DNA from: Nitrososphaerota archaeon
Lineage (GTDB): Archaea > Thermoproteota > Nitrososphaeria > Nitrososphaerales > UBA57
Length of the DNA: 55,068 nt
Assembly (NCBI GenBank): GCA_013378375.1
Contig: JACAFT010000003.1
Span: forward strand, 1-55,068
Direction: 5' to 3'
Shown: positions 8,431-22,376 of the stretch, in pieces
Layout of the letters: each line of letters starts with the position of its first letter
Numbering within the stretch: position 1 is the stretch's first letter
The notes under the pieces: model-generated
What the model was told of the DNA's origin: nothing
What the model saw: the letters and a program-made list of their open reading frames with translations, nothing else
The model's database searches: none
Program-made: the position numbers and the translations under genes

Positions 8431-8904
8431 ATGACAATTGATATTAAAAAATTTAAAAAAGTTCTTGGTTCTTTTGCAACCGGTGTTACTGTTGTAACTA
8501 CTTCCCTTGATGGCAGAAATCATGGATTGACTGTTAATGCATTTTCTTCCTTATCATTAAAACCTCCATTAGTATTGATATGTATTGATAAGAAAACCGA
8601 ATCATCTAAAATTCTTAAAAAAAGTAAAATATTTGCTGTAAATATTCTTCAACGTAATCAAGAACACCTTAGTAAGATTTTTTCCGACCCACAGAATAAA
8701 AATCGATTTCGCGGTGTGAAAACAATAAAAAAAATATCCGGTTCTCCAATTATTGTAAATTCATTAGCTTATATTGATTGTCGAGTTGAAAAAATATTTT
8801 CTATTGGCGATCATAATATTTTTATTGGGAAAGTAATAACTTTAAATTATAAAAATTTGAATCCTTTGCTTTATTACAGGGGTGAGTACATTGACACTGA
8901 ATAG
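8431..8904 (+). CDS. Flavin reductase-like FMN-binding domain protein
   Basis: 157 aa. FATGVTVVTT...HGLTVNAFSSLSLKPPLVLICI...GDHNIFIGKV is the typical HpaC/flavin reductase pattern. Confidence 0.8.
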   Translation: MTIDIKKFKKVLGSFATGVTVVTTSLDGRNHGLTVNAFSSLSLKPPLVLICIDKKTESSKILKKSKIFAVNILQRNQEHLSKIFSDPQNKNRFRGVKTIKKISGSPIIVNSLAYIDCRVEKIFSIGDHNIFIGKVITLNYKNLNPLLYYRGEYIDTE

Positions 8905-9397
8905 TAATTTTAAAAAAATTGCTGTTTGTGGAAGTAATTCATCAAGTTCTTTAGATACTCTTGGCATTGCTGAGAATATTGGTTCTGAAATTGCTAAACA
9001 CAATGGAGTGTTGTTGTGTGGAGGTATGGGTGGTGTTATGGAAGCTGCTTCTCGAGGAGCAAAAATGTTTAATGGTGTAACTGTTGGTATTCTTCCTGGC
9101 GATACTGAATCTGAATCAAATAAATATATTGATATTCATATTCCTACTTCTCTTGGAAAACTTAGGAATTTTTTTGTTGTAAGTCTTGCAGATGTTGTGA
9201 TTGGCATTGCAGGTGGATGGGGTACCTTATCTGAACTGTCTTTGGCTATGAATCTTAACAAACCTGTGATATTAATTCGCAATACTGGAGGTGTAGTGGA
9301 TTGGTTATATTCAAATCAAAACTCGTTTTTAGGCTCCACTTTTCATGTTGCAGATAATGCTAAAGACGCAATAATTCTTGCATTTTCCAATGATTAA
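8882..9397 (+). CDS. TIGR00725 / LOG-like (SLOG superfamily) Rossmann protein
   Basis: 171 aa. KIAVCGS...GVLLCGGMGGVMEAASRGA...GIAGGWGTLSELSLA. It overlaps the flavin reductase gene by 23 nt; an alternative TTG start lies at 8891. Confidence 0.7.
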   Translation: MSTLTLNSNFKKIAVCGSNSSSSLDTLGIAENIGSEIAKHNGVLLCGGMGGVMEAASRGAKMFNGVTVGILPGDTESESNKYIDIHIPTSLGKLRNFFVVSLADVVIGIAGGWGTLSELSLAMNLNKPVILIRNTGGVVDWLYSNQNSFLGSTFHVADNAKDAIILAFSND

Positions 9398-9433
9398 TTG
9401 GTTCACTGGTTCATTTTTGCAGTGATTTTAGTT

Positions 9434-9446
9434 AAAATATATATTT
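9434..9446 (+). promoter_or_regulatory. Candidate archaeal TATA box for the 9467 cluster, implying a near-leaderless transcript
   Basis: aaaatatatattt is centred about 27 nt upstream of the ATG at 9467. This is position and composition only, in an AT-rich background. Confidence 0.3.
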
Positions 9447-9466
9447 GAATAAAAAATATATTAGAC

Positions 9467-10396
9467 ATGCATTTAGTGAAAATTAATTATTCATTTTGGT
9501 TGATATTATCTTTACTTTTATTTGTAACATTAGTTCCACACTCTTTTTCTCAAGCACCTGCTGTAATTAGTTCATTTCAAGTTTTAGATCCTAATGGTAA
9601 TGATGTTACAGGTGAATCTCTTGTGGCAGGAGGCAGTTATACTGTAAAATTTACTATCGAAATTGGTGCAACATTGACTGATAAAATATTATTATCTACT
9701 AATATGGAAAAATCTGGTAATGAATTTTGGACTTTAGAAAATAACTATCAGGGAATAGATACTTCAACTTGGACGCCTGGTTCACAATCAATTACATTTC
9801 AAGCTGTTGAAGGTGTGGCAGAATTTACTCTTGAAGGTAAAATATCTGAATCAATTACCGAGCGTGAGTTAACAGAAGTTCAAAAAACTGTTCATGCATT
9901 AGCGGAGGAGCGTATTCTAATTCTCCAGCTTGATTCTATGGACATTCTTGACCAACGTAGTTACGTAATTACCGACCAGATAATTATATCATATGATCAA
10001 ATACTTGCTTCAAAGAAAAATAATATTGATTCAACTTCTATGGAAGAAAAATATAAATTATTAGCTTCTGAAATAATTTCTGAAGCTGAATATCTAACTA
10101 CTTTTGGATTTTATGACGATGCAATAAAACTACTTGATACTATACCTGATTCGGATTATCCTGATCCACCTGTTGCAGCAACTCTGTATCTGGTCGCCGC
10201 TATCGTTTTTGTAATCACGTCTATTCTTTTTGGAATTCTATTTATTCGATCTAGATCTACTCGTTCTTACATTCTTGGTAGTGTTAATGAAAAAGCAGAC
10301 AAACTGGATTTATTATTAATAAAAGCTTCAAGACTCGATCAAAATCTGTCTAATGAAATTGAAACTATTAAAAAGGAGCTTAAGGAATTAGAGTAG
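9467..10396 (+). CDS. Type-I membrane protein: signal peptide, extracellular domain, one TM, cytoplasmic coiled-coil tail
   Basis: 309 aa. N-terminal hydrophobic FWLILSLLLFVTLVPHSFSQA. TM segment AATLYLVAAIVFVITSILFGILFI followed by RSRSTR and a heptad-like tail ending ...EIETIKKELKELE. It ends 8 nt before the next gene. Confidence 0.7.
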   Translation: MHLVKINYSFWLILSLLLFVTLVPHSFSQAPAVISSFQVLDPNGNDVTGESLVAGGSYTVKFTIEIGATLTDKILLSTNMEKSGNEFWTLENNYQGIDTSTWTPGSQSITFQAVEGVAEFTLEGKISESITERELTEVQKTVHALAEERILILQLDSMDILDQRSYVITDQIIISYDQILASKKNNIDSTSMEEKYKLLASEIISEAEYLTTFGFYDDAIKLLDTIPDSDYPDPPVAATLYLVAAIVFVITSILFGILFIRSRSTRSYILGSVNEKADKLDLLLIKASRLDQNLSNEIETIKKELKELE

Positions 10397-10404
10397 TGAT
10401 ATAG

Positions 10405-13092
10405 TTGTCTGATTATACTAGTTCAATACAAATAGTAGGTCTAGGTGGAACTGGAGCAAATGTTATCGAGGCGTTTATCCAAAATCGTGAAGATTTAGTT
10501 CCTTTACTTAAAAATGAAGGAATAAAAGTATCTCTTCTTGCACTCGATGTAGCTGATCATGATATACGAAGTCTTGATATGACATACAAAAACTTGACTG
10601 ATGATTTGAAAACACATAATATCCCATCAGATAAGATTAATCTTGTTAGTAAAACAATGAAGTTTCCTACTCCTGAATCTATGTTTGATTTTATTCAAAA
10701 TTATCCGGAATTTTTAAAACGCGAAGGTGCAACAGTACCTGATGATTTTAAACCTTGGTTATCTTCATCAATGGAAATTCCTCCTCTTGCCGGCGGTGTA
10801 GGAAGAAAACGCGCACTATCTAAAGCTATTTACGGATTAAATTATCATCATCTCAAACTTGTTGATGGTTATATGGACAAGTTTAAGGAACATGTCTTCA
10901 CGTCAACCATTCAACCAATTATCTTTCTTGTTTATGGGCTTGGCGGTGGTTCTGGAAGTGGAACTGCACTAGATTTTGCTAGACATTTACGTAAAAAAAT
11001 AGGAAGCGGTATACCAATTATTGGACTTGGAATTCTTCCTTGTGGTGGTGATGATCCTCCTGCTAAAGGTTCTTCTTGTTATGCATCATTACTTGAACAT
11101 GAATATGCTATTGATCGTACATTAAATCATGAAATTGTGAGTACTTATGGAGAAAGTTATCAAAATCCATTTACTGCTTTCCTTATGATGTCTTTAGGAC
11201 CTGCATACAGTAGAACTGGTAGTGTAATAGATGCTAGAAAACTTGTTGACGAAGCAATTGTTGATATTCTGATGAAATCATTGAATTTTGATCTTGCTGA
11301 TTTATTTAGTAATATTGGATCGAATGTTGATTTAGGCGGAAAGTGGGTTAATGTAATATCAACATTAAAAGTTTCATATCCTGTTGCTGAATTTATTGAT
11401 CTAACAAAAATTTATCTTGACAAACTCGATAAATTAAGAGAATTAAGAAGAGAAAAATTAGATATTTACAGTGGACATGACCAATATTCTGGCTTGGAAA
11501 CAATTATGACTGCCTCTTTTGACGAATTAAAATCTATATACAAACGTCTGAGTATTGAAAAGAATACATATGAAGAATCTCGATTTGAAGAAAATGTTCA
11601 AAGTTTTCTTGAAGAAGGAACTTCGATGGAAGCAGATTTAATCATGCATATAAGAGGAGTTGAAGATTCTACTCGTGTTTTGATTGACGATCTATCAAGA
11701 TCTGTCTTATCAATTGGTCTTGACGCAGCCGATGGAACTGTAGAGGCTCGTATAAGATCTCTTTCTGAAGAATTAATCTCCCTTAGTACCAATCTTTCAC
11801 AGAACTACCAAAAACTTCAGTCCAAGGTTAATCAATTGACAGAAGATTTACGTAGTACTTTACCTAGTGCTCAGTCTCTTACACCAAGACAAAATCAAAT
11901 TATTACTGACACTATTAATCTAGTTGATTTAATTAATCGTTATCTTACAGGTCTGCAATTATATCTTAAAATTTCCAATTTAGCTAATAATCTTCTTAAA
12001 ACTCTTGAAAAGAGTGAAACAACTCAATTACATACAAGAATGAAAGAAGCCGTACAGAGAATACTTAATCCAGAACTTGTAATTAATTTTGCTCTTCTTT
12101 CTTCTTTATTGTCTTCTATTAATACAGAAGTAAAAACATTGGATGCAAGATTAAGTGATTGTCAAGTCATGAAAAGATTAACCAGTGAACGATTAGACGA
12201 ATTAAAATCTGAAGAAGAATTACTTAACATTAAAAAACGCGGTCGCGAACAAGAAAAAAATCGAGTTGGTGGGAAAGCTAGAAGTATTAGATTTGGTTTT
12301 CTTGGACCAAAGAAAAAATCTATGCAAAATAAAGCAGGAGATTTGGGTCATGAAGTAAAAATACTTGAATCACAATTACATTCTATTACTGAAGAGCGAA
12401 AAATTGTAGAAGATAAATTAAGCGCTTTTCAAAATATAGAAAGAAAATTTGAAGTTGCATCTACATATAGAAAACTACTCACTGAAGCAACTTCATTAGA
12501 AAATTCTTACTATGAAAAATTAAATACAACAATGAAAGACAAAGGCTATTATGATCGTGTTGCTGAGCTAACTGAAAATGAACAACTTAAGATCATGCAA
12601 AAAATACTTCTTGAAGATGAAGCTTCTCTTACTCAAGAAAATATGTTAAATGAAATTATTGATAGGAAACATCTTAAAGAATATCTTTCAGGTGCTCTGG
12701 GTATATTTAGAATTCCTGCTACAATGGGATTAAATGCAGATTATAGAACAGATTATTTATGGTTCACTGTGGTTAGTCCACGTGGTCTATGGGATTCCGA
12801 TCTTGATTCCGAGGCTAAAACAATGTTATCTGGATATGTTTCTCAAGATGCTTCAAAAAGTATTTACATTCGGGAAGTTGATTCATCTGATCCTTGGACG
12901 ATGAGATTTCTTATTATTGCTGCCAAAGCATCTACTACTAATCTAGAGACATTCAAAGAAATGGATATTCTTTATAATTCAACAACTCAAGGCGAAAAAT
13001 TACTTTCACATTCTTATTTGTTAGAACAAGGCGTTCATGTCTCTCCTGGTCATCAATTATCTAAAACAGAAAAAGTCGAGGATAGAAACTAA
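10405..13092 (+). CDS. Divergent FtsZ/tubulin-superfamily GTPase with a very long coiled-coil region (895 aa)
   Basis: IQIVGLGGTGANVIEAF (nt 10438-10461) resembles the FtsZ G-box. YGLGGGSGSGTALDFA (nt 10936-10965) resembles the tubulin/FtsZ signature GGGTG[ST]G. NFDLADL (nt 11284-11301) resembles the FtsZ T7 NxDFAD. About aa 340-750 is heptad-rich and charged, followed by a globular C-terminus. TTG start. Confidence 0.8.
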   Translation: MSDYTSSIQIVGLGGTGANVIEAFIQNREDLVPLLKNEGIKVSLLALDVADHDIRSLDMTYKNLTDDLKTHNIPSDKINLVSKTMKFPTPESMFDFIQNYPEFLKREGATVPDDFKPWLSSSMEIPPLAGGVGRKRALSKAIYGLNYHHLKLVDGYMDKFKEHVFTSTIQPIIFLVYGLGGGSGSGTALDFARHLRKKIGSGIPIIGLGILPCGGDDPPAKGSSCYASLLEHEYAIDRTLNHEIVSTYGESYQNPFTAFLMMSLGPAYSRTGSVIDARKLVDEAIVDILMKSLNFDLADLFSNIGSNVDLGGKWVNVISTLKVSYPVAEFIDLTKIYLDKLDKLRELRREKLDIYSGHDQYSGLETIMTASFDELKSIYKRLSIEKNTYEESRFEENVQSFLEEGTSMEADLIMHIRGVEDSTRVLIDDLSRSVLSIGLDAADGTVEARIRSLSEELISLSTNLSQNYQKLQSKVNQLTEDLRSTLPSAQSLTPRQNQIITDTINLVDLINRYLTGLQLYLKISNLANNLLKTLEKSETTQLHTRMKEAVQRILNPELVINFALLSSLLSSINTEVKTLDARLSDCQVMKRLTSERLDELKSEEELLNIKKRGREQEKNRVGGKARSIRFGFLGPKKKSMQNKAGDLGHEVKILESQLHSITEERKIVEDKLSAFQNIERKFEVASTYRKLLTEATSLENSYYEKLNTTMKDKGYYDRVAELTENEQLKIMQKILLEDEASLTQENMLNEIIDRKHLKEYLSGALGIFRIPATMGLNADYRTDYLWFTVVSPRGLWDSDLDSEAKTMLSGYVSQDASKSIYIREVDSSDPWTMRFLIIAAKASTTNLETFKEMDILYNSTTQGEKLLSHSYLLEQGVHVSPGHQLSKTEKVEDRN

Positions 13093-13117
13093 TTTTCTTT
13101 GACTAAAGTGATAGACA

Positions 13118-15490
13118 TTGTCTAAATTAATCAATTCTTCTGTAATTGATAAAGTTGGATTTCGACCGTCAACCGATATAGATGATGCTGTTGAACGTGA
13201 AATAGAATATAGAAAGAATTTAAAAAAAATTTTTCTTGCTAGTACTATATTCTTACTTAGTGTATCTCTTCTTTATCTTGTACCATTATATCCTGTTCCT
13301 ATTGTTTTCCTATTCTCTATTGTTTCTGCCGTTATTGGTTTTCGTTCAGTCTTAACAGGTTTCTTATTTTCTTTGTTCCTATTCATTCCTGCTTATTTAT
13401 ATCAAACATCGGTTCCTTTTTGGTGGCTTTTGATTAATTTATTTATTATTGGAGTTGTATTAGCAAAATCTACACAAGATTCAAGTCATATACTTGCTCT
13501 TGTCTTTGGTATTATTTCAGGTCTACTATTTTTAACTCCATATTATTTTGTTTCTATACCTCTAATGTTGTTATATGGAATTGTTCGAAAAGATTCTGAA
13601 TTCTTTAGAAATACTGGATTATTATTTGGTTTCTTATTTATTTTTATTCCTTTTAATGCTCTTGCATTTTCTAAACATCTTCTGCTAGATGTTAGTACAA
13701 TGACTCAACAAACAATTTATAATAAAATGATTGACAGTTCATTGCCTTTATTTACGCAAATTATTTATGACCAAAAATCTCGATTGGTGTCTTTTGATAT
13801 ACCTGTTATTGTTGATTCTTTTTCTGGTCTTTTAACTATACAAAATAATTTATTTAATCCATTTTTGTATATACTTATCGATAAACTCGTATTATTATTT
13901 ATTCCAATTTTACTTGTTCTTTCATTTTCTATTATGGGAGTTCTTGAGAGAATATGGCCTTGGATGGAATCACGTGAAGTTGAATTAAGTATACTTCCTC
14001 GTTATTCTTCAATTATATCACTTATCTTGGGCACTGCGTTTTTCATTATTCCTCTACAAACTATGCAAATACCATTTGACTACCATACTAGTTTTGATTC
14101 ACTTAATTCTATCAAATCCCTTTCCATTGCAGGGGCCCTTGGTCTTGTTCTTTCATTAAGTTCGATTAATTTATCCAATCGCTATGAAGGTGCTGAACTT
14201 ACTGAATCTGTAAAAGCTAACTGCATTAAATCTCTGGACATTGTAGATGAATCTAACAATCAACTCAATGAAATACTATCTGTATGTCCTGGTATTGATA
14301 TAAATGCAGAATTTGCTCAGATGAATGAATACAAAGAAGAACTTAGTATTACTTTGGATGTTCTTGATACGCTTTCTTATAAAGGACTTAAGGAGAAATC
14401 TAAAAAACTCTTTCATCTGTCTGATGGACAATCTTCTCGTGCAGATTCAATTAGTTTTAAAGTACTGAATTATCATAATGATCAATTAGATCAATGCCAA
14501 AAAATGCTTAAAATATTAGATGGTTTAGGTATTAATAATCTTCCTTCAATTGATTCTGCGCATTTATCTTATAACACTGAAACAAGTTTCACTGATGTTC
14601 TTGATAATCAAAGAGATCTAAATGATTTTCTCATCGAGATTTCTCAGAACACTATCAAAGTTACAGAAAGCTTAGTTGGAGTTGTCCAAAAAGAATTTGA
14701 CACTACTCTTGAACCAACCTCTATATCTATTAGTGATAATTTTATTCACCAAGGAAAAGGACAACAAGCTTTAGAGTCACTTATAGTAACAATTCAGTCT
14801 CTCCATAAAAGATATCATCGCACGATGGAAAAAACAATCGGTAGTCTTAAACGCTTAATCCAGCGTTCAATCAAAATACATGAGTCTCATGTTCTTCCAT
14901 TGAACGAATCTCTTGGACAAAATCCTTATGACGAGCAAACCGGTTCTATTGCGAAAGAGATTAATCTTCACTTTGACGAACTTCGAGGTTTTCAAGGTAT
15001 TCTTTACTTACCTGATGTTATGTATAGGTTGGAATTTCTAGAATCCGGTACTCATACAGTTATTAGTGAATTACTGAGATTATTGCGAGAATTTGAAAAA
15101 CGAAATGATTCACGAGTACCAATGGATTTTCATTGGGGCAAAGATACTCAATTAATTTCTGAAATTGAATCCTCATTACGCCGTTTAGACGACCAATCTA
15201 AAACTGATCTATCTGATCGGTTGTCAAATATTGAATACGGGATTAAAATTATTGAAAATGAAGCAAATACACTGAAGAAATATCTTATTATGAATGAATT
15301 TATTCTAAATTACGTTAATATGGAGCCTCTTATTTCTTCTTTAATTAGTATTGAAGGAAAAGTTCTTCCCAAACAACTTCCTGTGAAATCAAAGTATGCT
15401 ATACAATATCTGCAACTTTTTGCATTTGGTAAATCTAAAATTACTTTCAATGCAAAAACTGATACATTGACAAAAATTACTAAAAACTAA
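13118..15490 (+). CDS. Polytopic membrane protein (N-terminal about 350 aa, multiple TM segments) with a large helical cytoplasmic C-terminal domain
   Basis: 790 aa. The N-terminal half has repeated hydrophobic stretches (IFLASTIFLLSVSLLYLV, VIGFRSVLTGFLFSLFLFIPAYL, LLFIPILLVLSFSIMGV and others). The C-terminal roughly 430 aa are hydrophilic and helical. No recognisable family. TTG start 25 nt after the preceding gene. Confidence 0.65.
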   Translation: MSKLINSSVIDKVGFRPSTDIDDAVEREIEYRKNLKKIFLASTIFLLSVSLLYLVPLYPVPIVFLFSIVSAVIGFRSVLTGFLFSLFLFIPAYLYQTSVPFWWLLINLFIIGVVLAKSTQDSSHILALVFGIISGLLFLTPYYFVSIPLMLLYGIVRKDSEFFRNTGLLFGFLFIFIPFNALAFSKHLLLDVSTMTQQTIYNKMIDSSLPLFTQIIYDQKSRLVSFDIPVIVDSFSGLLTIQNNLFNPFLYILIDKLVLLFIPILLVLSFSIMGVLERIWPWMESREVELSILPRYSSIISLILGTAFFIIPLQTMQIPFDYHTSFDSLNSIKSLSIAGALGLVLSLSSINLSNRYEGAELTESVKANCIKSLDIVDESNNQLNEILSVCPGIDINAEFAQMNEYKEELSITLDVLDTLSYKGLKEKSKKLFHLSDGQSSRADSISFKVLNYHNDQLDQCQKMLKILDGLGINNLPSIDSAHLSYNTETSFTDVLDNQRDLNDFLIEISQNTIKVTESLVGVVQKEFDTTLEPTSISISDNFIHQGKGQQALESLIVTIQSLHKRYHRTMEKTIGSLKRLIQRSIKIHESHVLPLNESLGQNPYDEQTGSIAKEINLHFDELRGFQGILYLPDVMYRLEFLESGTHTVISELLRLLREFEKRNDSRVPMDFHWGKDTQLISEIESSLRRLDDQSKTDLSDRLSNIEYGIKIIENEANTLKKYLIMNEFILNYVNMEPLISSLISIEGKVLPKQLPVKSKYAIQYLQLFAFGKSKITFNAKTDTLTKITKN

Positions 15491-16473
15491 ACTAGCAAAC
15501 TAACTTGCTTTAATGAATCTTTTAATAGTTTTTCTATTTTTTCCTCAGTTTCGGATATTAATTGCTTAATTGTATTTTCTGTTTCTCTAAATGTTTTTGT
15601 TGAATATTTAGAATTGTCAAACAAATTATCGGAGAAATGATTGTTTATTATTGGAATGTATTTTAGTACATTGGCTTGCGCTCTATCTCTTTCTTCTTTC
15701 TTTCCTAGCTTATCAAAATAATCTGCTTGAAATATAGCTACTGTGAATAGATAAAAGAATTGTAAATTTTGCCAAACTGGTTTTACTGTAGGTGTAAATT
15801 CTTTCCATTCCTTGTAAGGAATTTGCCCATATAGAACTTCACCTAATGAATCCATTGTTGATTTGATCGAATTAATTATTGTAATAGAATCTCTACTTTT
15901 TATTGCCGTTTTAATTTTTTTTGTGTCATCCTGTAAATTTATTTTATTATTGTTTAATGTCGAAGATAATTCATCAAATTCATTCATCATTTCATCTACT
16001 CTGTCCCAATTATACTTCATTGTCTCATTGATTAGGTTGAATAATAGCGAAACAAATGTCCATGTCTTAAAAATTGTGTCATAAATATAAGTTGAATAGT
16101 TTATTTGGTTCATTCTTTCATCAATTTCACTTTGCTTTTTGTCTACGTAACGTTTTTTGTTTTCATTTACAAGTGTATTGATATTTTCTATTATTTCGTT
16201 TGTTTCAACAGGTGTATCGATTGTTAATGTTACGACTTGATTATCCTCCTTTTGAGTTATTAATATATCAAAATATCCTTCTTTTTTAATTATACTTATT
16301 GATTCTATTTTTATAAAAAATTCCGGTTCAAATTTTTTAGATAATATTCCTATTTTTCTTTCAAATGAAATTCCATCTTTTGTTATGAATAGCCTGCCCT
16401 TTATTTTCTTTTTTTCAAGATTTAATATTACTGATTTGTATTCTCCTATAACCTTGGAATTGTTTTTTATCAT
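15487..16473 (-). CDS. PH/GRAM-like N-terminal domain protein with a helical C-terminal domain
   Basis: 328 aa. KKIKGRLFITKDGISFERK...FFIKIESISIIKKEGYFDILITQKED resembles bacterial PH/GRAM-like domains; the rest looks predominantly helical. Its stop codon overlaps the stop of 13118-15490. Confidence 0.55.
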   Translation of the reverse strand: MIKNNSKVIGEYKSVILNLEKKKIKGRLFITKDGISFERKIGILSKKFEPEFFIKIESISIIKKEGYFDILITQKEDNQVVTLTIDTPVETNEIIENINTLVNENKKRYVDKKQSEIDERMNQINYSTYIYDTIFKTWTFVSLLFNLINETMKYNWDRVDEMMNEFDELSSTLNNNKINLQDDTKKIKTAIKSRDSITIINSIKSTMDSLGEVLYGQIPYKEWKEFTPTVKPVWQNLQFFYLFTVAIFQADYFDKLGKKEERDRAQANVLKYIPIINNHFSDNLFDNSKYSTKTFRETENTIKQLISETEEKIEKLLKDSLKQVSLLV

Positions 16474-16558
16474 ATTCTATATTATTTAGTAATCAAATAT
16501 AGCAATTACGTATTTTTTAACCAATTATTTTTATTATCCTACTGTCTGATATATTATT

Positions 16559-17884
16559 ATGAGTGGCACAAATAATCGTAAATTTTACACTTATGATTCA
16601 TTTATTTTTTGTCCTGTAGGTCATAAAAATGTAAGTGGATTGGATGAATGCGCTTCTTGTAACATGCCTCTTATAAATTTTAGAAAAGAACTTTCTACTT
16701 TGATATCCAATCTTGAAAGTATTAATGGTGAAAAACATAATAAAATAATTAATTTTGGACTTGGAACTTTTGGATCACAAATATTATCATCATTAAAAAA
16801 TGATTTTGGTTCTGAACAGCTTTTTAATTATCTTATGATTGATTACGAAGGCTCCAATGTTGATTCACTTATTCCTGACAACGATGATAGTTTGGAACAT
16901 AATTCCTATTCTGTTGCTAATGATTATGATTCAAAAACTAATATATGGAGTAATTTTGAAAATAATTTTTCTCAATTCGATCAACTTGAAGATAAGATTC
17001 GTCGAATTGGACTTAATAATAATATTGACGAACAAACTGCAATACTCACCGGTTCTATGGGTGAAACTCTGGTTTCAGGTATGACTCCTCCATTACTAAA
17101 AAAAATTAAACAAATAAACCCTAAAACTTCTCGATTAGTTTTAACTTCTTTACCTGCTACTAGTGATACTGATCAAGTACATTTTAATGCTTTTTGCGGT
17201 GTGTCTAGATTTATTCGTAATCAAAAAACTTCTGGAGATATGTTGGTAGTTTTACAAGGTGATGCGTTGGAAAAAATGATTGGTATAGATAGATCTGGAA
17301 AAAAATTAGGTTCTGATTTTTTGATTCCGCGTATGGTAAATCTGTTAACTAATAATAGTCCTGCAATTAATAGTCTAAGTAAAATTGCAAAGTCTCTTAA
17401 AGTTCTTGCATTTGCACCAGTATATGTCTATGGAAGAAGTTATGAAATCTACGATAATCTAAAAAATATTCTCGACGATGCTGCATATTTTCCATTATCA
17501 CCTTTCCAATATGAATCTGTTATTCTTAATGTTATAATAGTTCGAGCACCTGAAAATGTACTTAATGTTGTTTCCAAAAAACGTATTGAAGCTGATTGTA
17601 ATTTGTGGAACCGCAAGAGGTTTCCTTCATTAAAAGAATCTCTTGTTTATGTCTTACCTGTTAAAGATACTTCAGATCGATTGGATGTTTTATTGCTTCT
17701 TGGCGGTGCAAAATTACAGAATATTATCCAGTCTGTACAACCGGGTTATGAACGTTTTAAAGAATATATTCGAGAACGTGATTTATGGGATGAATTTCAA
17801 ATTAATGAGGACGATCTTAAAAAATTCGAAAATACAATTACCAGTTATGATAAAAATCTTGCTAAATTGTTAAAACCAAATTGA
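16559..17884 (+). CDS. Zinc-ribbon plus degenerate FtsZ/tubulin-like domain protein (441 aa)
   Basis: N-terminal CPVGH...CASC. IINFGLGTFGSQILSSL (nt 16754-16780) is G-box-like. YLMIDYEGSN resembles FtsZ INTDAQAL. AILTGSMGETLVSGMTPPLL (nt 17048-17080) sits at the signature-loop position but is degraded. LVLTSLP and DMLVVLQGDAL follow in FtsZ-like order. Confidence 0.5.
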   Translation: MSGTNNRKFYTYDSFIFCPVGHKNVSGLDECASCNMPLINFRKELSTLISNLESINGEKHNKIINFGLGTFGSQILSSLKNDFGSEQLFNYLMIDYEGSNVDSLIPDNDDSLEHNSYSVANDYDSKTNIWSNFENNFSQFDQLEDKIRRIGLNNNIDEQTAILTGSMGETLVSGMTPPLLKKIKQINPKTSRLVLTSLPATSDTDQVHFNAFCGVSRFIRNQKTSGDMLVVLQGDALEKMIGIDRSGKKLGSDFLIPRMVNLLTNNSPAINSLSKIAKSLKVLAFAPVYVYGRSYEIYDNLKNILDDAAYFPLSPFQYESVILNVIIVRAPENVLNVVSKKRIEADCNLWNRKRFPSLKESLVYVLPVKDTSDRLDVLLLLGGAKLQNIIQSVQPGYERFKEYIRERDLWDEFQINEDDLKKFENTITSYDKNLAKLLKPN

Positions 17885-17891
17885 TTTTTTG

Positions 17892-20800
17892 TTAAGATAA
17901 ATCCCTCTTGTTATTGTTATAATTGGGAAGTATTCTTTCCATTGCTTTATTTATAATAAATGAAAGAATAATAATTATTGTAAATATTCCTGCGGTGATA
18001 AAAGTAATCATAGAATCTGATCTATACATGTTTACTTGGAGTTCCACATCGCCATTGGTAATTCTTTTTGTAATTTCTTCTTGTTCTCCTCTATATTCAA
18101 TAAAAAACTTGTAATTGCCTGGTGTAAGCTTATCAAAAACTGATTCTTCACTCGTTAGTGTCTTGTTTTGCACTTCACCAATCATTGTAATATCTGCATT
18201 ATTGATAATTCGATTGAATGGATCTCTTAATTCTACTGTTACTTTATAGGATTTTAGATATATTGTTATTTTATTTTCTGGTAAATTATCTTCTAGACTA
18301 TTAATTATTATTGTTATTATTAATCCTTCATCAATAATTTCTACTGGTATTGTCTTGTCGTTCATTGTTACTATTATTCTTGACGAATCTGATTCCATTT
18401 CAGAAAATAATGAGTTGGGAATTTTTATAATTGACATTAAATTATAATTCTCATTTTTTGCTATTGTTAATTGTATTGCATCGATTCTTTTTTGTTCTAT
18501 ATGACTAATTAACGACGACGTAGAAAGTATTTCAATTTTTGTGTCATCGAATTTTAATTCAGAAAATTCTGTTATCATGAAATCACTTTCTTTCGTTGTT
18601 ATTCTGAATTCTAACGATGATTTTGAAATAAGTGATGATTTTAATGTCCGTGTTTGTGGTTCAAAATCAATTATTTTCATTCCATATAGTTCAAAATTAG
18701 TTCCTAATTCTCCATTGATTATAATTGATATATATTCTAAATCTACTCCTTCTGAAAGCAAAATCATACTTACTGGATTTTGTGTTTTTACCATTCTGTC
18801 ATTATTTGACCATTGATAATTGCTTTTTGAACCGTTTGCAATGAAATTCTTGTTTGAATCTTGTACCTCTATGTTTACTATTCCATCTACCAGTATTATT
18901 GATCCAATACTAATCAAAGAATCTGAAAATCTATATTCATTGGTTATATCAACATTACAAATAGTTATACAATCGTAAATCAACGCTGATAAAACTCCAC
19001 CATGTTCTGGAATTGCAGCATACGCTAAACGAAAATTCAACTTTTCTTTTATGTTTATTGGCATTTCTATATCACTTGATATTATCATCGTAGAAGGTTC
19101 AATGACTAACCATTGATCATCTATGTTTGCCTCGACCCATGTTTTCATTAATGCACTAGGAACTTTATTGTCTGCAGATGAGCTCATTGTACCTATTACT
19201 GGTCTGACTTCTATTTCTAAAGATCTTAATAAACTTCCGAATAATATCTGCGACGTTCTGGAATCTCCTTCAATTTTATTTCCATTATTTATACAACCAC
19301 TTATTCCAAACTCTTCAACAATGTCGGATGCTTTTCTCATATTGACATCTTGTGCATTCTCAATTTTGTCTCCTACAAATTGCAAAATTACTTTTACTTT
19401 ATCTATTTCTAGTGCATTTTCATTTACTCTTGATTGTTCTAAAATTTCAGACGCACAAATTTTAACTTTCTCATCCGGTATCATTAGTTCATTCATTGTT
19501 GGCAGGTATTTTGCACCTAATACCTTTCCTATGTTGGCTATTTGTCTTTTATCATTCATCGAGAAAATTTTTAGTTCTTTATTAGCTTCTTTGTTATTGC
19601 TTCCAGTTTTTTCAAGAATTATGTTTATTGAACCTTCTCCTGTTCTAGTATAATTTACTGAAAATGCATAACTTGTTTCAGAATTTGGTTCCAAGTATAT
19701 CTCTTTTTCAGTTGGCCAGATGATCAATCCATTAATGTTCGTAGAAGTTTTAATTACTACATATCCTCCTCGAAGCTCTGTATTTGAAAGAGTCACCCAA
19801 ATTTGAGAACTTTCACCTTCAAATCCAGTATTTGACATTCTTATTGATTCTATCATGACCATTGGGAGTAAATCATATTGAATTTTTATGGTTAGGGGTT
19901 TGGTCACGATTAGATTTGTGGGGTTTGCTGTTCTCTGTTCTGATCCATCTGCCGATTCTATAACCCATTGCATGAACCCATATTCATCTACTTTTTTCGT
20001 TGCTTCTAGCTGTAATTCATATCCATCGTCTACCCATTCTTCATCAAAAGTCGTTACTAAATTAATTAAAAATGGAGGTTCTACTATTTTTGTTAATTTG
20101 TATTGTTTAATGTATTCTGCATAAATTGTTTTTGGACCATCTATCATTAAATCCAAATTAAATTGATCTGCTGTTATTGCTCCTGTCCATTTATTGAATC
20201 TATATCTTTCTCCCTCTGATATGTCAAGTATTTCTATTGTACTGAGAGTTATTATTGAATTTTCTTTATGCCATCCTGCTCCTTTGGCGTCAATTAAACC
20301 TAAAAATTCTCCAACTGGGGAAGTTCTTATGTTCAATAAAAATTCCCTGTCAAATTCTGCCGTGAATATCATTGATCCTTCAATTTCTAAAACTTTTTCA
20401 AGATTTACATCATCATCACTCCATGAATTAAATTTATATCTAGTTGAATCGTCTTCTGGTATTATTTCTTTGTCTAGTCGTATAGTCCAACTTGAACCTT
20501 GTTTAACTAGTTTTGTAAATGGGAGTTGTTCTGGTTGCTTTGTACAAACGTTTTCACATTCTCCTCCTGCTGTAGATCCGCATTTGACTGTTGTTGTTTC
20601 ATTACAGGTTAAAATAATTGTGGCAATATTGTCTCCATTTTCTTTGCTTGTTGAACCTATTGTTAACTCAAATAACTTTAGTATATCCAACCACACCGTA
20701 GCCGTTGTATCTGATTTTAGTGATGTTGCAGTTATAATGAGTGGAGTGGGTTCTGCTGGAGTTTCTGTTGTAGTTTTAATAAAAAGCTCAACTTCTTTTG

Positions 20801-22376
20801 TTTGTGACTGGTCTAATGGAACAGTTCTGTCTGAGAATGTAATTACTATGTCTTCTCTATTATCTAGGTTTGTTCTTAATTCAATTGTATCACTAAATCC
20901 TCCAACTGGTATTAGTACTAGTTTTATTCTTTCTGTGTCACCTTGCCACATTTGTAACTCAGCTTTACTAAGGCTTAATGTAAATTCTGCTATTGGAACT
21001 TCGACTGAAAAAGACGCACTGCTTGTTAGATCACCTGATTTTCCTTTGATTTGTACACTGTGAGTTCCTGGTTCTACGTTACTATCAATAAATACTGTTA
21101 CTGTTGTAGTTGTTGCCCCGTTAGCTTCAGGTGTTAGTTTATTTTCAAGAAAGGATAAAGTGATTCCAATTTCCATATTTTCATGACTTAATTCAACTTG
21201 TGAACTAAATCCGTCAGTTGATTGTATCGTTAAGGTTAGACTTTTTGAATCTCCTGCATTGATTTGATTTGCATCAGGCGTAATCGAGAGAAGAAATCCT
21301 CCTTTTACTGTAAGGACTAGGTTGTTTTCATCTTTCGCATAATTAGGTTTATCTGCATCTCCTCTTATTGTTATTGTTTCTGAAGTTTTGGCTGTAAATG
21401 TCCCACTAAATTTTCCATTTGCATCTGTTGTGCCTGTTACGTATGTTGCTAAATTTACAAATGTTCCATTTCCTCCTATTCTTTGTAATGTTACTGAAGC
21501 ATCACTTACAGGATTGCCTGATGAATCCGTTACTGTTGCTGTTATAGTTGTTGGTTGGAAAATTGTTAATGATGGTGAATCTGTTGAAAGAGTAATTGAT
21601 AAAGGATTTGATAAGATTTTTACTCTGAGACTTATAGTATGTTCAAGAGTACCAACTTTCCCTTTAAGATTTAATAATACACCGTCGCCATTTGCTTCAG
21701 CGTTACTGTTTGCGATTACTCTTACCGTTATTGTATCTTCTCCTCCTTCCGGCACATTTATATCTCCTATGTAAGTTATTGTGGCCCCTGTCATAGACAC
21801 TGATTCTAATTCAACTGGCCCTGAAAATCTTGTATCGACGTTGTTTGTATCCTTAGCTGATCTAATTGTTAGTGTTACGTCTTCTTGTTGACCAGGCCTT
21901 AATGATATCGTACTCTTGTCTGCCGTTATTTCAAAATCTGAAATATACAAAGTTATAGTTTTTTGCGCGTAATCTGTAGAATCTCCACTATTTACTGCTT
22001 TAATCGTTATTTGATAATTACCAGTTTGAGCTGAAAGTTGTGGTGTTAAAATTAATGTAGAATTTTTTGTTGTACTACCAAGAAGAAAATATTCAAAAGA
22101 TTGTTGTGACACAGAAGTGCTTAATCCTGTTGGCACTCCACTGATTTCAATACTTACTGTTCCATTGAACGATGAGGAAACTTCTCTTGATAATTCTATT
22201 CTTATTGATTTACTGCCTCCCTTTGTAACTGCAATTTCTGAAATTGTACTTGTTTGATCTAGTGTTTCAATATTTATATCAAAATTATTACTGCTGTCTA
22301 TATCTGCTGCAAATGCTGATGGAATCATAAATATAATTAAGGCGACCGATAAGCAACAAAGTAAGATATTTCTCAT
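17892..22376 (-). CDS. Giant secreted, C-terminally anchored multi-domain surface protein (Ig-like/Big, InlB-B-like repeats, CarboxypepD_reg-like module)
   Basis: 1494 aa. Signal peptide MRNILLCCLSVALIIFMIPSAFA. Ig-like segment TITATVTDSSGNPVSDASVTLQ. Repeats with YKFNSWSDD, YRFNKWTG and GFMQWV. The C-terminal VELRDPFNRIINNADI...LTPGNYKF is followed by a TM segment MITFITAGIFTIIIILSFII. Confidence 0.7.
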   Translation of the reverse strand: MRNILLCCLSVALIIFMIPSAFAADIDSSNNFDINIETLDQTSTISEIAVTKGGSKSIRIELSREVSSSFNGTVSIEISGVPTGLSTSVSQQSFEYFLLGSTTKNSTLILTPQLSAQTGNYQITIKAVNSGDSTDYAQKTITLYISDFEITADKSTISLRPGQQEDVTLTIRSAKDTNNVDTRFSGPVELESVSMTGATITYIGDINVPEGGEDTITVRVIANSNAEANGDGVLLNLKGKVGTLEHTISLRVKILSNPLSITLSTDSPSLTIFQPTTITATVTDSSGNPVSDASVTLQRIGGNGTFVNLATYVTGTTDANGKFSGTFTAKTSETITIRGDADKPNYAKDENNLVLTVKGGFLLSITPDANQINAGDSKSLTLTIQSTDGFSSQVELSHENMEIGITLSFLENKLTPEANGATTTTVTVFIDSNVEPGTHSVQIKGKSGDLTSSASFSVEVPIAEFTLSLSKAELQMWQGDTERIKLVLIPVGGFSDTIELRTNLDNREDIVITFSDRTVPLDQSQTKEVELFIKTTTETPAEPTPLIITATSLKSDTTATVWLDILKLFELTIGSTSKENGDNIATIILTCNETTTVKCGSTAGGECENVCTKQPEQLPFTKLVKQGSSWTIRLDKEIIPEDDSTRYKFNSWSDDDVNLEKVLEIEGSMIFTAEFDREFLLNIRTSPVGEFLGLIDAKGAGWHKENSIITLSTIEILDISEGERYRFNKWTGAITADQFNLDLMIDGPKTIYAEYIKQYKLTKIVEPPFLINLVTTFDEEWVDDGYELQLEATKKVDEYGFMQWVIESADGSEQRTANPTNLIVTKPLTIKIQYDLLPMVMIESIRMSNTGFEGESSQIWVTLSNTELRGGYVVIKTSTNINGLIIWPTEKEIYLEPNSETSYAFSVNYTRTGEGSINIILEKTGSNNKEANKELKIFSMNDKRQIANIGKVLGAKYLPTMNELMIPDEKVKICASEILEQSRVNENALEIDKVKVILQFVGDKIENAQDVNMRKASDIVEEFGISGCINNGNKIEGDSRTSQILFGSLLRSLEIEVRPVIGTMSSSADNKVPSALMKTWVEANIDDQWLVIEPSTMIISSDIEMPINIKEKLNFRLAYAAIPEHGGVLSALIYDCITICNVDITNEYRFSDSLISIGSIILVDGIVNIEVQDSNKNFIANGSKSNYQWSNNDRMVKTQNPVSMILLSEGVDLEYISIIINGELGTNFELYGMKIIDFEPQTRTLKSSLISKSSLEFRITTKESDFMITEFSELKFDDTKIEILSTSSLISHIEQKRIDAIQLTIAKNENYNLMSIIKIPNSLFSEMESDSSRIIVTMNDKTIPVEIIDEGLIITIIINSLEDNLPENKITIYLKSYKVTVELRDPFNRIINNADITMIGEVQNKTLTSEESVFDKLTPGNYKFFIEYRGEQEEITKRITNGDVELQVNMYRSDSMITFITAGIFTIIIILSFIINKAMERILPNYNNNKRDLS

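Follow-up and report, generated by a model that had tools for sequence, protein, structure and literature searches.

What does an archaeon do with two dissimilar tubulin-superfamily proteins that are encoded side by side, in the company of putative membrane proteins? The question is raised by a 55,068-nucleotide stretch of DNA from a Nitrososphaerota archaeon (contig JACAFT010000003.1, assembly GCA_013378375.1; the window, hereafter), in which five consecutive open reading frames (ORFs), g1 to g5, span positions 9467–17884. An original prediction, made from the sequence without database searches, had taken them for an uncharacterised archaeal cytoskeletal or membrane-remodelling module. The observation is confirmed, and its interpretation holds in part. 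Our analysis points, with about even confidence, to a self-contained and horizontally mobile five-gene module whose two unlike tubulin-superfamily proteins form a membrane-tethered assembly; the cytoskeletal or membrane-remodelling function itself we infer from the gene content. The five ORFs are as follows.

9467–10396, plus strand: g1, 309 aa
10405–13092, plus strand: g2, 895 aa, TTG start
13118–15490, plus strand: g3, 790 aa, TTG start
15487–16473, minus strand: g4, 328 aa
16559–17884, plus strand: g5, 441 aa

The ORF listing agrees with the predicted strands, with the gaps of 8 nt between g1 and g2 and 25 nt between g2 and g3, and with the 85-nt divergent spacer between g4 and g5; g3 and g4 are convergent and their ends overlap by 4 nt.

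Is g2 a tubulin-type protein? It matches the Pfam family Tubulin_2 (PF13809) with 43.4 bits against a cut-off of 27 (E = 3.5e-11, profile positions 2–206 of 356) and also has a sub-threshold match to Pfam Tubulin. A protein search returned 553 full-length homologues, nearly all of which, among those listed, carry a precomputed PF13809 assignment, and g2 is a member of the FtsZl1, or Pfam Tubulin_2, family. Tens of its residues are invariant across phyla in an alignment of 70 sequences, and the three motifs named in the original prediction, a G-box (GLGGTG in the translation), GGGSGSG and NFDLAD, are present in the translation and conserved among these homologues.

10438–10455, plus strand: T1-like loop GLGGTG of g2; G12, G14 and G17 are invariant in the 70 sequences
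10942–10962, plus strand: T4 tubulin signature GGGSGSG of g2; invariant or nearly so in the 70 sequences and aligned to the GGGTGSG loop of CetZ
11284–11301, plus strand: T7-like motif NFDLAD of g2, residues 294–299; F295 and D296 are invariant and D299 nearly invariant in the 70 sequences

In the AlphaFold model of g2 (pLDDT 89.5, pTM 0.76), residues ~1–325 adopt the tubulin-type S1–S6 GTPase domain, and NFDLAD lies between a long H7-like helix (274–292) and a short H8 (297–304). A Foldseek search with this model gave CetZ1 (2.7e-7), followed by CetZ2, gamma- and beta-tubulin, TubZ, OdinTubulin and FtsZ, all with a probability of 1.00 over ~330–370 columns. By sequence, the only solved relatives are Haloferax CetZ proteins, aligned around the signature loop. 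With the Pfam match above threshold, the predicted structure confirms for g2 the GTPase-domain fold of the tubulin/FtsZ superfamily, equipped with T1, T4 and T7-like motifs, and catalysis is predicted. The long coiled coil that had also been claimed was borne out in part: after H8 the model has one strand (315–324) and then an all-helical region (327–710) that includes one helical hairpin of ~55 residues. The chain ends in an alpha/beta domain (residues 717–887), whose modeled order of elements, E785-H798-E820-E832, would be compatible with S8-H10-S9-S10 of tubulin. Alignment of this domain with the C-domain of g5 by hhalign placed the top match on the expected S8–S10 region but was not significant (E = 0.14).

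A solitary paralogue of g2 (L034:2138–4906, plus strand; 41% identity, 30 bits to Tubulin_2) was found between aIF5A and the ribosomal L3/L4/L2 genes, with no g1, g3, g4 or g5 nearby, in a Nitrosopumilales metagenome-assembled genome (MAG) that has the full module on another contig (L024).

The second protein, g5, has two features that can be read from its translation.

16610–16660, plus strand: zinc knuckle CPVGH...CASC (pattern CPxGH...CxxC) of g5, ahead of the tubulin fold
17051–17080, plus strand: degenerate GTP signature GSMGETLVSG of g5

Its match to Pfam PF00091 is below threshold (26 bits against a cut-off of 33), yet it covers the entire profile. A family profile of g5 built across phyla found in the PDB the Asgard tubulin AtubB2 (4.5e-11), FtsZ (3.5e-10) and CetZ (7.5e-10), as well as BtubB and TubZ. 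The AlphaFold model (pLDDT 72, pTM 0.70) shows S1–S6/H1–H7 and then S7-H9-S8-H10-S9-S10; it was built from a shallow alignment of 17 sequences, since a wide protein search seeded across phyla gave essentially the same thaumarchaeal set. In Foldseek the model is aligned over its full length with TubZ (4e-14, the top match), with beta- and gamma-tubulin and with CetZ (TM-score 0.70). The zinc ribbon, the FtsZ-like domain and the degenerate signature of the original prediction have all held; behind the zinc ribbon, the predicted structure confirms a complete, two-domain tubulin/FtsZ fold.

The pairing of an active with a degenerate tubulin, as had been proposed, describes the window, where the motifs are intact in g2 and degenerate in g5, but it is specific to certain lineages. 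All 22 Chloroflexota orthologues of g5 that were examined have a canonical GTP signature (GGG[TM]G[SCGA]G, of the GGGTGSG type), as do the archaeal loci L021, L024 and L044. The signature was lost differently in marine Thaumarchaeota (GETLVSG), in groundwater Thaumarchaeota (SEGIVAG) and in Bathyarchaeia (W[DE]G[VI]GS[AG]), and the last of these also lack the zinc ribbon. No conserved D or E occupies the H7–H8 linker, the position of T7, in the g5 family alignment of any lineage, and the linker varies in length. By this comparison of motifs, g5 has at most a nucleotide site, and in g2 such a site is joined by a T7-like loop. The two proteins can be aligned with each other only marginally and mainly around the T4 loop (hhalign, probability 71–76%), and apart from this region an all-against-all hhalign comparison revealed no hidden paralogy among the components of the module.

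The g5 family is small and closed: a profile scan of 1.84 billion representatives retrieved 127 clusters at E <= 1e-3 and 96 at 1e-10. Could g5 simply be the known thaumarchaeal FtsZ-like protein of the Nmar_1262 type? Both are thaumarchaeal members of the tubulin superfamily in which the GTP signature has degenerated, as has the T7 loop (PMC3684127). This identity was rejected by comparison of motifs: the Nmar_1262 type has the signature AGKAGSA in place of GETLVSG, no zinc ribbon is reported for it, and in heterotrophic marine Thaumarchaeota a separate ftsZ is annotated. The AGKAGSA motif was also found in none of the 125 other representatives of the g5 family listed from the same scan.

In one group of Bathyarchaeia (L054, L058, L065, L070–L072 and L077) the g5 ORFs have 580–658 aa, with an N-terminal extension of ~210–290 residues that has no similarity to g1, g3 or g4 and may be either an extra domain or an over-extension of the ORF. 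A search for a g4 domain fused into the long Bathyarchaeia g5 ORFs (520–658 aa) found none, and part of their extra length is probably ORF over-extension.

Do the five genes belong together? One genome per GTDB species was scanned with the g2 alignment, which gave 175 relatives in 185,579 species; 79 loci were kept and their genes counted by tblastn and hidden Markov models. The Thaumarchaeota among the carriers are MAGs, none of which bears the name of an ammonia oxidiser; the remaining carriers are Bathyarchaeia, a few other Thermoproteota, and Chloroflexota, Dehalococcoidia included. The original prediction of a specifically archaeal module is therefore not upheld, the gene set being common to Chloroflexota. 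Among the 79 loci, g1 is present in 76, g2 in 78, g3 in 71, g5 in 70 and g4 in 41; the g1, g2, g3 and g5 families are found together in 69–78 of the loci. All five genes occur in 40 and four in 27, and most of the remaining loci reach a contig edge. Nearly always (76 of 79) g1 lies directly upstream of g2. The order is g1-g2-g3-(g4 reversed)-g5 in Thaumarchaeota, and g1-g2-g3-g4-g5 on one strand in Chloroflexota, where in Dehalococcoidia the stop and start codons overlap or abut. In Bathyarchaeia it is g1-g2-(g5 reversed)-g3, and a homologue of g4 follows g3 or precedes g1 in at least nine loci. The reverse search, a metagenome scan seeded with a narrow g5 alignment, yielded 38 loci, and g1–g5 were present in all 22 of those with enough upstream DNA. 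Clustering of all flanking ORFs revealed no other gene family common to the lineages. The operon-like linkage that had been proposed from the short gaps is strongly supported by this conservation, and the set stays together in archaea and Chloroflexota whether the search starts from g2 or from g5, as the co-localisation check set out in the original prediction required.

It could be argued that the genes are neighbours by chance or by local synteny and have no joint function. The opposite strand of g4 in the window and its absence from many Bathyarchaeia loci could be cited for such a view. We consider it hardly credible, because the same families are found in three phyla with unrelated flanks, in both directions of search, and reordered yet still adjacent; recurrence of the five-gene set in three phyla is beyond chance. 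The conservation is uneven within the set. Between Thaumarchaeota and Chloroflexota the identity of g2 (53%) is about twice that of g3, g5 and g1 (21–35%), which fits a core subunit that forms polymers or makes many contacts.

Two further observations concern the loci themselves. A third order, g3-g5-(x)-g1-g2, is seen in the archaeal loci L021, L024 and L044, where g5 has an intact signature and a zinc ribbon and g4 was not detected. An identical 22-kb stretch that includes the module appears in L001 and L002, two contigs of MAG CAZKFJ01, which probably reflects redundancy of assembly or binning and not a duplication.

What, then, would hold two tubulin-like proteins at a membrane? By hydropathy g1 has a signal-like N-terminal segment, an ectodomain of ~210 aa and one transmembrane (TM) helix (residues 242–260; 10190–10246), followed by a charged, helix-like cytoplasmic tail of 49 aa (10247–10393) that is conserved in the family alignment. 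It is thus a type-I single-pass membrane protein, in agreement with the original prediction; no relative was found in Pfam or the PDB, where profile searches yielded noise or generic helical matches. The multi-TM N-terminal half claimed for g3 is recovered as about 8–10 hydrophobic segments within residues 51–350, followed by a soluble tail of 440 aa. Weak PDB matches to chains of helical or coiled-coil type are an indirect sign that this tail is helical, and g3 is a polytopic membrane protein with a probably helical cytoplasmic domain. A motif scan found no P-loop in g3 and a profile search no Pfam family.

The protein g4 does lie on the opposite strand and is soluble, with a beta-rich N-terminal domain of ~100 aa (16159–16446; pattern GxGxLxlTxxxIxFE) and a helical C-terminal domain. 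The proposal of a PH/GRAM-like fold for its N-terminus is plausible: the top PDB match of the family profile is the PH domain 6f8e, at a borderline E = 0.0014, and single members of the family have sub-threshold matches to Pfam PH_trem, bPH_3 and CheF-arch. The positional counterparts of g4 in Bathyarchaeia are homologous to it (hhalign probability 98.6%, E = 1.3e-15). None of the five proteins has a match in NCBIfam, and Pfam domains of the vWA, P-loop GTPase, OmpA-like and Ser/Thr kinase types are absent from g1, g3, g4 and g5 and from 16–18 orthologues of g1, g3 and g4.

Taken together, these components suggest how a membrane-tethered assembly might work. The core subunit would be g2, which would bind and hydrolyse GTP, and its NFDLAD loop would act at a longitudinal contact of the tubulin type, either with a second g2 or with g5. 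The latter would be an obligate heterotypic partner, serving as co-polymer subunit, cap or nucleator. With no T7 it would be unable to activate hydrolysis itself, and in the lineage of the window it may have turned into a structural subunit that needs no nucleotide. Attachment to the membrane would be provided by g1, through its conserved cytoplasmic tail, and by g3, through its large cytoplasmic domain; g4 would be a PH-like adaptor, and the link to the cell envelope would be made by the ectodomain of g1. As output we envisage local remodelling or shaping of the membrane or envelope, not cytokinesis.

Several points weigh against such an assembly. The FtsZl1 family is experimentally uncharacterised, and polymerisation has never been shown for any of its members. 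In the model of g2 the tubulin fold extends as far as S7/H9 and is then broken by about 430 helical residues, and the C-terminal alpha/beta domain may or may not complete it. Contact between g2 and g5 is inferred from co-occurrence only, their sequence alignment being restricted to the region of the T4 loop. In many Bathyarchaeia loci no g4 is detectable within 10 kb. A patchy spread (175 of 185,579 species) and transfer between domains are likewise characteristic of accessory or conflict systems, and related tubulin-coiled-coil genes have been reinterpreted as parts of conflict systems (PMC7159879). Finally, the FtsZ-like protein of N. maritimus, also one with degenerate motifs, does not polymerise (PMC3684127), so that degenerate tubulin homologues need not be cytoskeletal.

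How much of this was known? Tubulin_2 is the FtsZ-like family of Makarova & Koonin (PMC9871819), who described FtsZl1 as an FtsZ-like domain with a coiled coil and a C-terminal domain (Makarova & Koonin 2010, Biol Direct 5:33, PMC2875224). The published FtsZl1 operons contain vWA proteins, a divergent P-loop GTPase, OmpA-like proteins, Ser/Thr kinases and lineage-specific membrane proteins; in archaea they have the order A2 (a small membrane protein), FtsZl1, membrane GTPase and A1, and membrane remodelling was proposed for these operons, rich as they are in membrane proteins (PMC2875224). The tripartite layout of g2, with its N-terminal GTPase domain, long helical middle and globular C-terminal domain, corresponds to that description, as does an operon rich in membrane proteins with g1 (~300 aa) directly upstream, in the manner of A2. 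By gene order the archaeal operons resemble g1-g2-g3, although g3, unlike the membrane GTPase, has no P-loop.

The differences are considerable. The C-terminal domain, predicted in the 2010 paper to be mostly alpha-helical, is mixed alpha/beta in the model of g2, and the authors found no T6–H7 elements, whereas g2 has a conserved NFDLAD after a predicted H7-like helix. The vWA, P-loop GTPase, OmpA-like and kinase partners are not present in the module, and for the published operons there is no report of a second tubulin gene, of members of the g3 or g4 family, or of carriers among Thaumarchaeota or Dehalococcoidia. Full-text literature searches found no description of the five-gene set or of the g5 family. 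The claim of an uncharacterised system is therefore right as to experiment but needs amendment as to naming, given that the g2 family has had a name since 2010 (FtsZl1/Tubulin_2, PMC2875224). What is known is the FtsZl1 family; what is new is a previously undescribed second tubulin partner and a partner set distinct from that of the published FtsZl1 operons.

The distribution of the module bears on its function. Thaumarchaeal g2 has 53–54% identity to one group of Chloroflexota and 35% to Bathyarchaeia, the two Chloroflexota groups having 47% between them. Because thaumarchaeal g2 is nearer to a Chloroflexota group than to Bathyarchaeia, the cassette has crossed domains. The nearest syntenic loci of the window (among L003, L005 and L080) include those of ASW8_bin1 and SAT139, published MAGs of heterotrophic marine Thaumarchaeota (PMC7300363, PMC13374868), and the window, from a deep-sea organism, belongs to a heterotrophic, non-ammonia-oxidising marine Thaumarchaeota lineage. 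Among the flanking genes are one for Lhr helicase and those for malic enzyme, aconitase, 2-oxoacid:ferredoxin oxidoreductase, lipoate ligase and 2-oxoacid dehydrogenase E2, enzymes of central carbon metabolism that fit such a lineage. Throughout the thaumarchaeal clade the chromosomal site of the module is stable, amid housekeeping genes. The GC content (27–34%) is even across the g1–g5 region and its flanks, so that there is no compositional mark of a recent island.

The module genes are already contained in Data Set S3 of PMC7300363: five orthologous groups there, unannotated and with 307, 898 (Tubulin_2), 788, 327 and 456 (Tubulin) aa, lie on consecutive genes. They are clusters 2348, 2340, 1600, 1558 and 1565, each of which occurs in 4–5 heterotrophic marine Thaumarchaeota genomes only. 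All five apparently stand in its 'gained in HMT' sheet, and the paper passes no comment on them. The genomes of these organisms have a size of ~1 Mb and also encode CdvABC and a separate FtsZ homologue (PMC7300363).

Is the module instead a conflict system? An NTP-dependent system of the defence or abortive-infection type, in which the tubulin-like proteins form a triggered multimer and the membrane proteins act as sensor or effector, is the main rival to the membrane-tethered assembly, and one that we judge unlikely. The module is rare and patchy and was transferred between domains; in the data set of Aylward & Santoro its five orthologous groups are restricted to 4–5 heterotrophic marine Thaumarchaeota genomes and apparently count as gains of that branch; and a SLOG-family gene lies directly upstream in the lineage of the window. 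The GAP1-N2 conflict systems (Kaur, Burroughs, Iyer, Aravind 2020, eLife 9:e52696; PMC7159879) are similar in having one or two tubulin proteins with coiled-coil or helical C-termini together with membrane proteins, and some of their neighbourhoods contain two tubulin-coiled-coil genes. Their defining components, in Firmicutes and Actinobacteria, are however a GAP1-N2 TRAFAC GTPase together with vWA and FNIII-repeat proteins, and these are absent from the five proteins and from the conserved flanks; the second tubulin of the module, g5, has a zinc ribbon and no coiled coil. The GAP1 GTPase, vWA, FNIII repeats, HSP70 and effector enzymes are all missing, and the PADLOC defence models gave no match. 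Unlike fast-evolving defence genes, g2 is highly conserved across phyla. The chromosomal context is that of stable housekeeping genes in the thaumarchaeal clade, the SLOG gene is unlinked outside this clade, and the module has been retained in streamlined genomes of ~1 Mb.

The SLOG gene belongs to cluster 4 (PF18306; 8882–9397, plus strand). It lies ahead of g1 at a distance of 70 nt and shares 23 nt with the flavin-reductase-like gene before it (8431–8904). Its synteny is restricted to loci of the Nitrosopumilales type, which places it outside the conserved module.

Do the nearest relatives of the two tubulin-like proteins suggest a role in division or in DNA segregation? Those nearest by sequence are FtsZ and CetZ, and in Foldseek TubZ comes first for g5 and ranks high for g2. 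In favour of a machine of the FtsZ-ring or TubZ-like type III partition kind, the zinc ribbon of g5 could bind nucleic acid. Even so, we regard such a machine as very improbable. The module differs from TubZ/TubR/tubC systems in its chromosomal housekeeping context and in having neither a TubR-like or other small DNA-binding gene conserved in the neighbourhoods nor centromere-like repeats: a search of 9000–18000 found no centromere-like iterons, only AT-rich chance matches. Viral relatives of g2 were found in none of 2.9 million viral contigs, and in Bathyarchaeia g5 has no zinc ribbon. The module is far too rare to be the general division system of the lineage and, being kept beside CdvABC and a separate FtsZ homologue, it would serve an added function and not be the division machinery.

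Two other known systems invite comparison. CetZ (PDB 4b46, 4b45, 3zid) is the top sequence and structure match of g2 and among the best of g5, and it too is a membrane-associated, non-division cytoskeleton of the tubulin superfamily. It differs as a single-gene system of Euryarchaeota with ~390 aa and a canonical C-terminal domain plus tail, without a helical insert of 430 residues, dedicated membrane partners or a paired paralogue, and its identity to g2 is 15–19%. The heterodimeric tubulins (alpha/beta-tubulin, BtubA/B and Asgard AtubA/B) likewise have two adjacent tubulin-fold genes with asymmetric competence of T7 and nucleotide site, and AtubB2 is the top PDB match of the g5 family profile. 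They are close paralogues of equal size, whereas g2 and g5 hardly align with each other and one is twice as long as the other; a g2–g5 heterodimer is conjectural.

Nearer to the membrane-tethered assembly, and also improbable in our view, is a platform for envelope biogenesis or surface structures (S-layer patterning or insertion, or the formation of vesicles or appendages), in which the tubulin-like pair would position a g1/g3 complex without generating force. The conserved ectodomain of ~210 aa in g1 would suit such a role. The carriers may tend to have S-layer envelopes, as do Thaumarchaeota, Bathyarchaeia and the cultured Dehalococcoides, which have no peptidoglycan. In Thaumarchaeota the gene of a large secreted protein, g6, stays adjacent over deep divergence.

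17892–22376, minus strand: g6, 1494 aa; secreted, Ig-like domains and transglutaminase-like core, TM helix at the C-terminus

Its Pfam matches are Big_1, CarboxypepD_reg and Transglut_core, some of them sub-threshold. Ten thaumarchaeal loci have it next to g5, at identities as low as 26%, and it is absent from the loci of Chloroflexota and Bathyarchaeia; it may be a thaumarchaeon-specific sixth partner, or an accessory or cell-surface protein, outside the conserved core. Across the lineages the module is accompanied by no conserved gene for a secretion ATPase, glycosyltransferase, pilin or S-layer protein, which speaks against an envelope platform. That explanation moreover overlaps the membrane-tethered assembly and differs from it in output only.

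The upstream regions in the window contain elements that may direct transcription of the module.

9434–9452, plus strand: TATA-like element AAAATATATATTTGAATAA, ~27 nt upstream of the start codon of g1 (direct reading)
16474–16558, no strand: divergent spacer between g4 and g5, 85 nt, AT-rich
16521–16535, within the g4/g5 spacer: element CCAATTATTTTTATT, ~30 nt upstream of g5

A near-identical AAAATATATATTTGAATAA element stands at equal distance in the related thaumarchaeal loci L081, L091 and L093, and L096 and L100 carry the similar ATATATATTG; AAAATATATATTTGAATAA is a likely promoter of g1-g2-g3. The CCAATTATTTTTATT element is kept in L081, L083 and L091. By their sequence and position, AAAATATATATTTGAATAA and CCAATTATTTTTATT are putative archaeal TATA-type promoters of near-leaderless transcripts. 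Segments of 26 nt, AT-rich and TATA-like, in 9433–9465 (upstream of g1) and in 16476–16536 (in the g4/g5 spacer) are 77% complementary, which could reflect a common promoter or operator motif, or chance.

The main question then is what kind of machine the membrane-tethered assembly would be. Tentatively, and as a possibility that we hold to be doubtful, it may represent a third prokaryotic tubulin machine beside FtsZ rings and CetZ. This would be a heterotypic filament or oligomer of a GTP-hydrolysing FtsZl1-type subunit and a partner tubulin without T7. Dedicated single-pass and polytopic membrane proteins, together with a PH-like adaptor, would fix it to the membrane, and it would pass force or positional information to the envelope of cells that have an S-layer and no wall. 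The cassette would have been exchanged between archaea and Chloroflexota, and the partner would have lost nucleotide binding more than once.

In summary, no branch of the tubulin superfamily has been less well understood since 2010 than FtsZl1, and the module offers a compact and well-conserved form of it for study: it consists of five genes, it does without vWA, kinase or GTPase accessories, and the predicted structure of g2 is very confident. The GTP loop of g5, intact or decayed according to lineage, is a natural experiment on the division of labour between catalytic and non-catalytic tubulins, as with alpha/beta-tubulin. Transfer between archaea and Dehalococcoidia suggests a machine that is independent of domain-specific membrane chemistry. 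For the heterotrophic marine Thaumarchaeota, an abundant group of the dark ocean with no cultured member, retention of the module in ~1-Mb genomes alongside Cdv and an FtsZ homologue means that it probably has a distinct cell-biological function.

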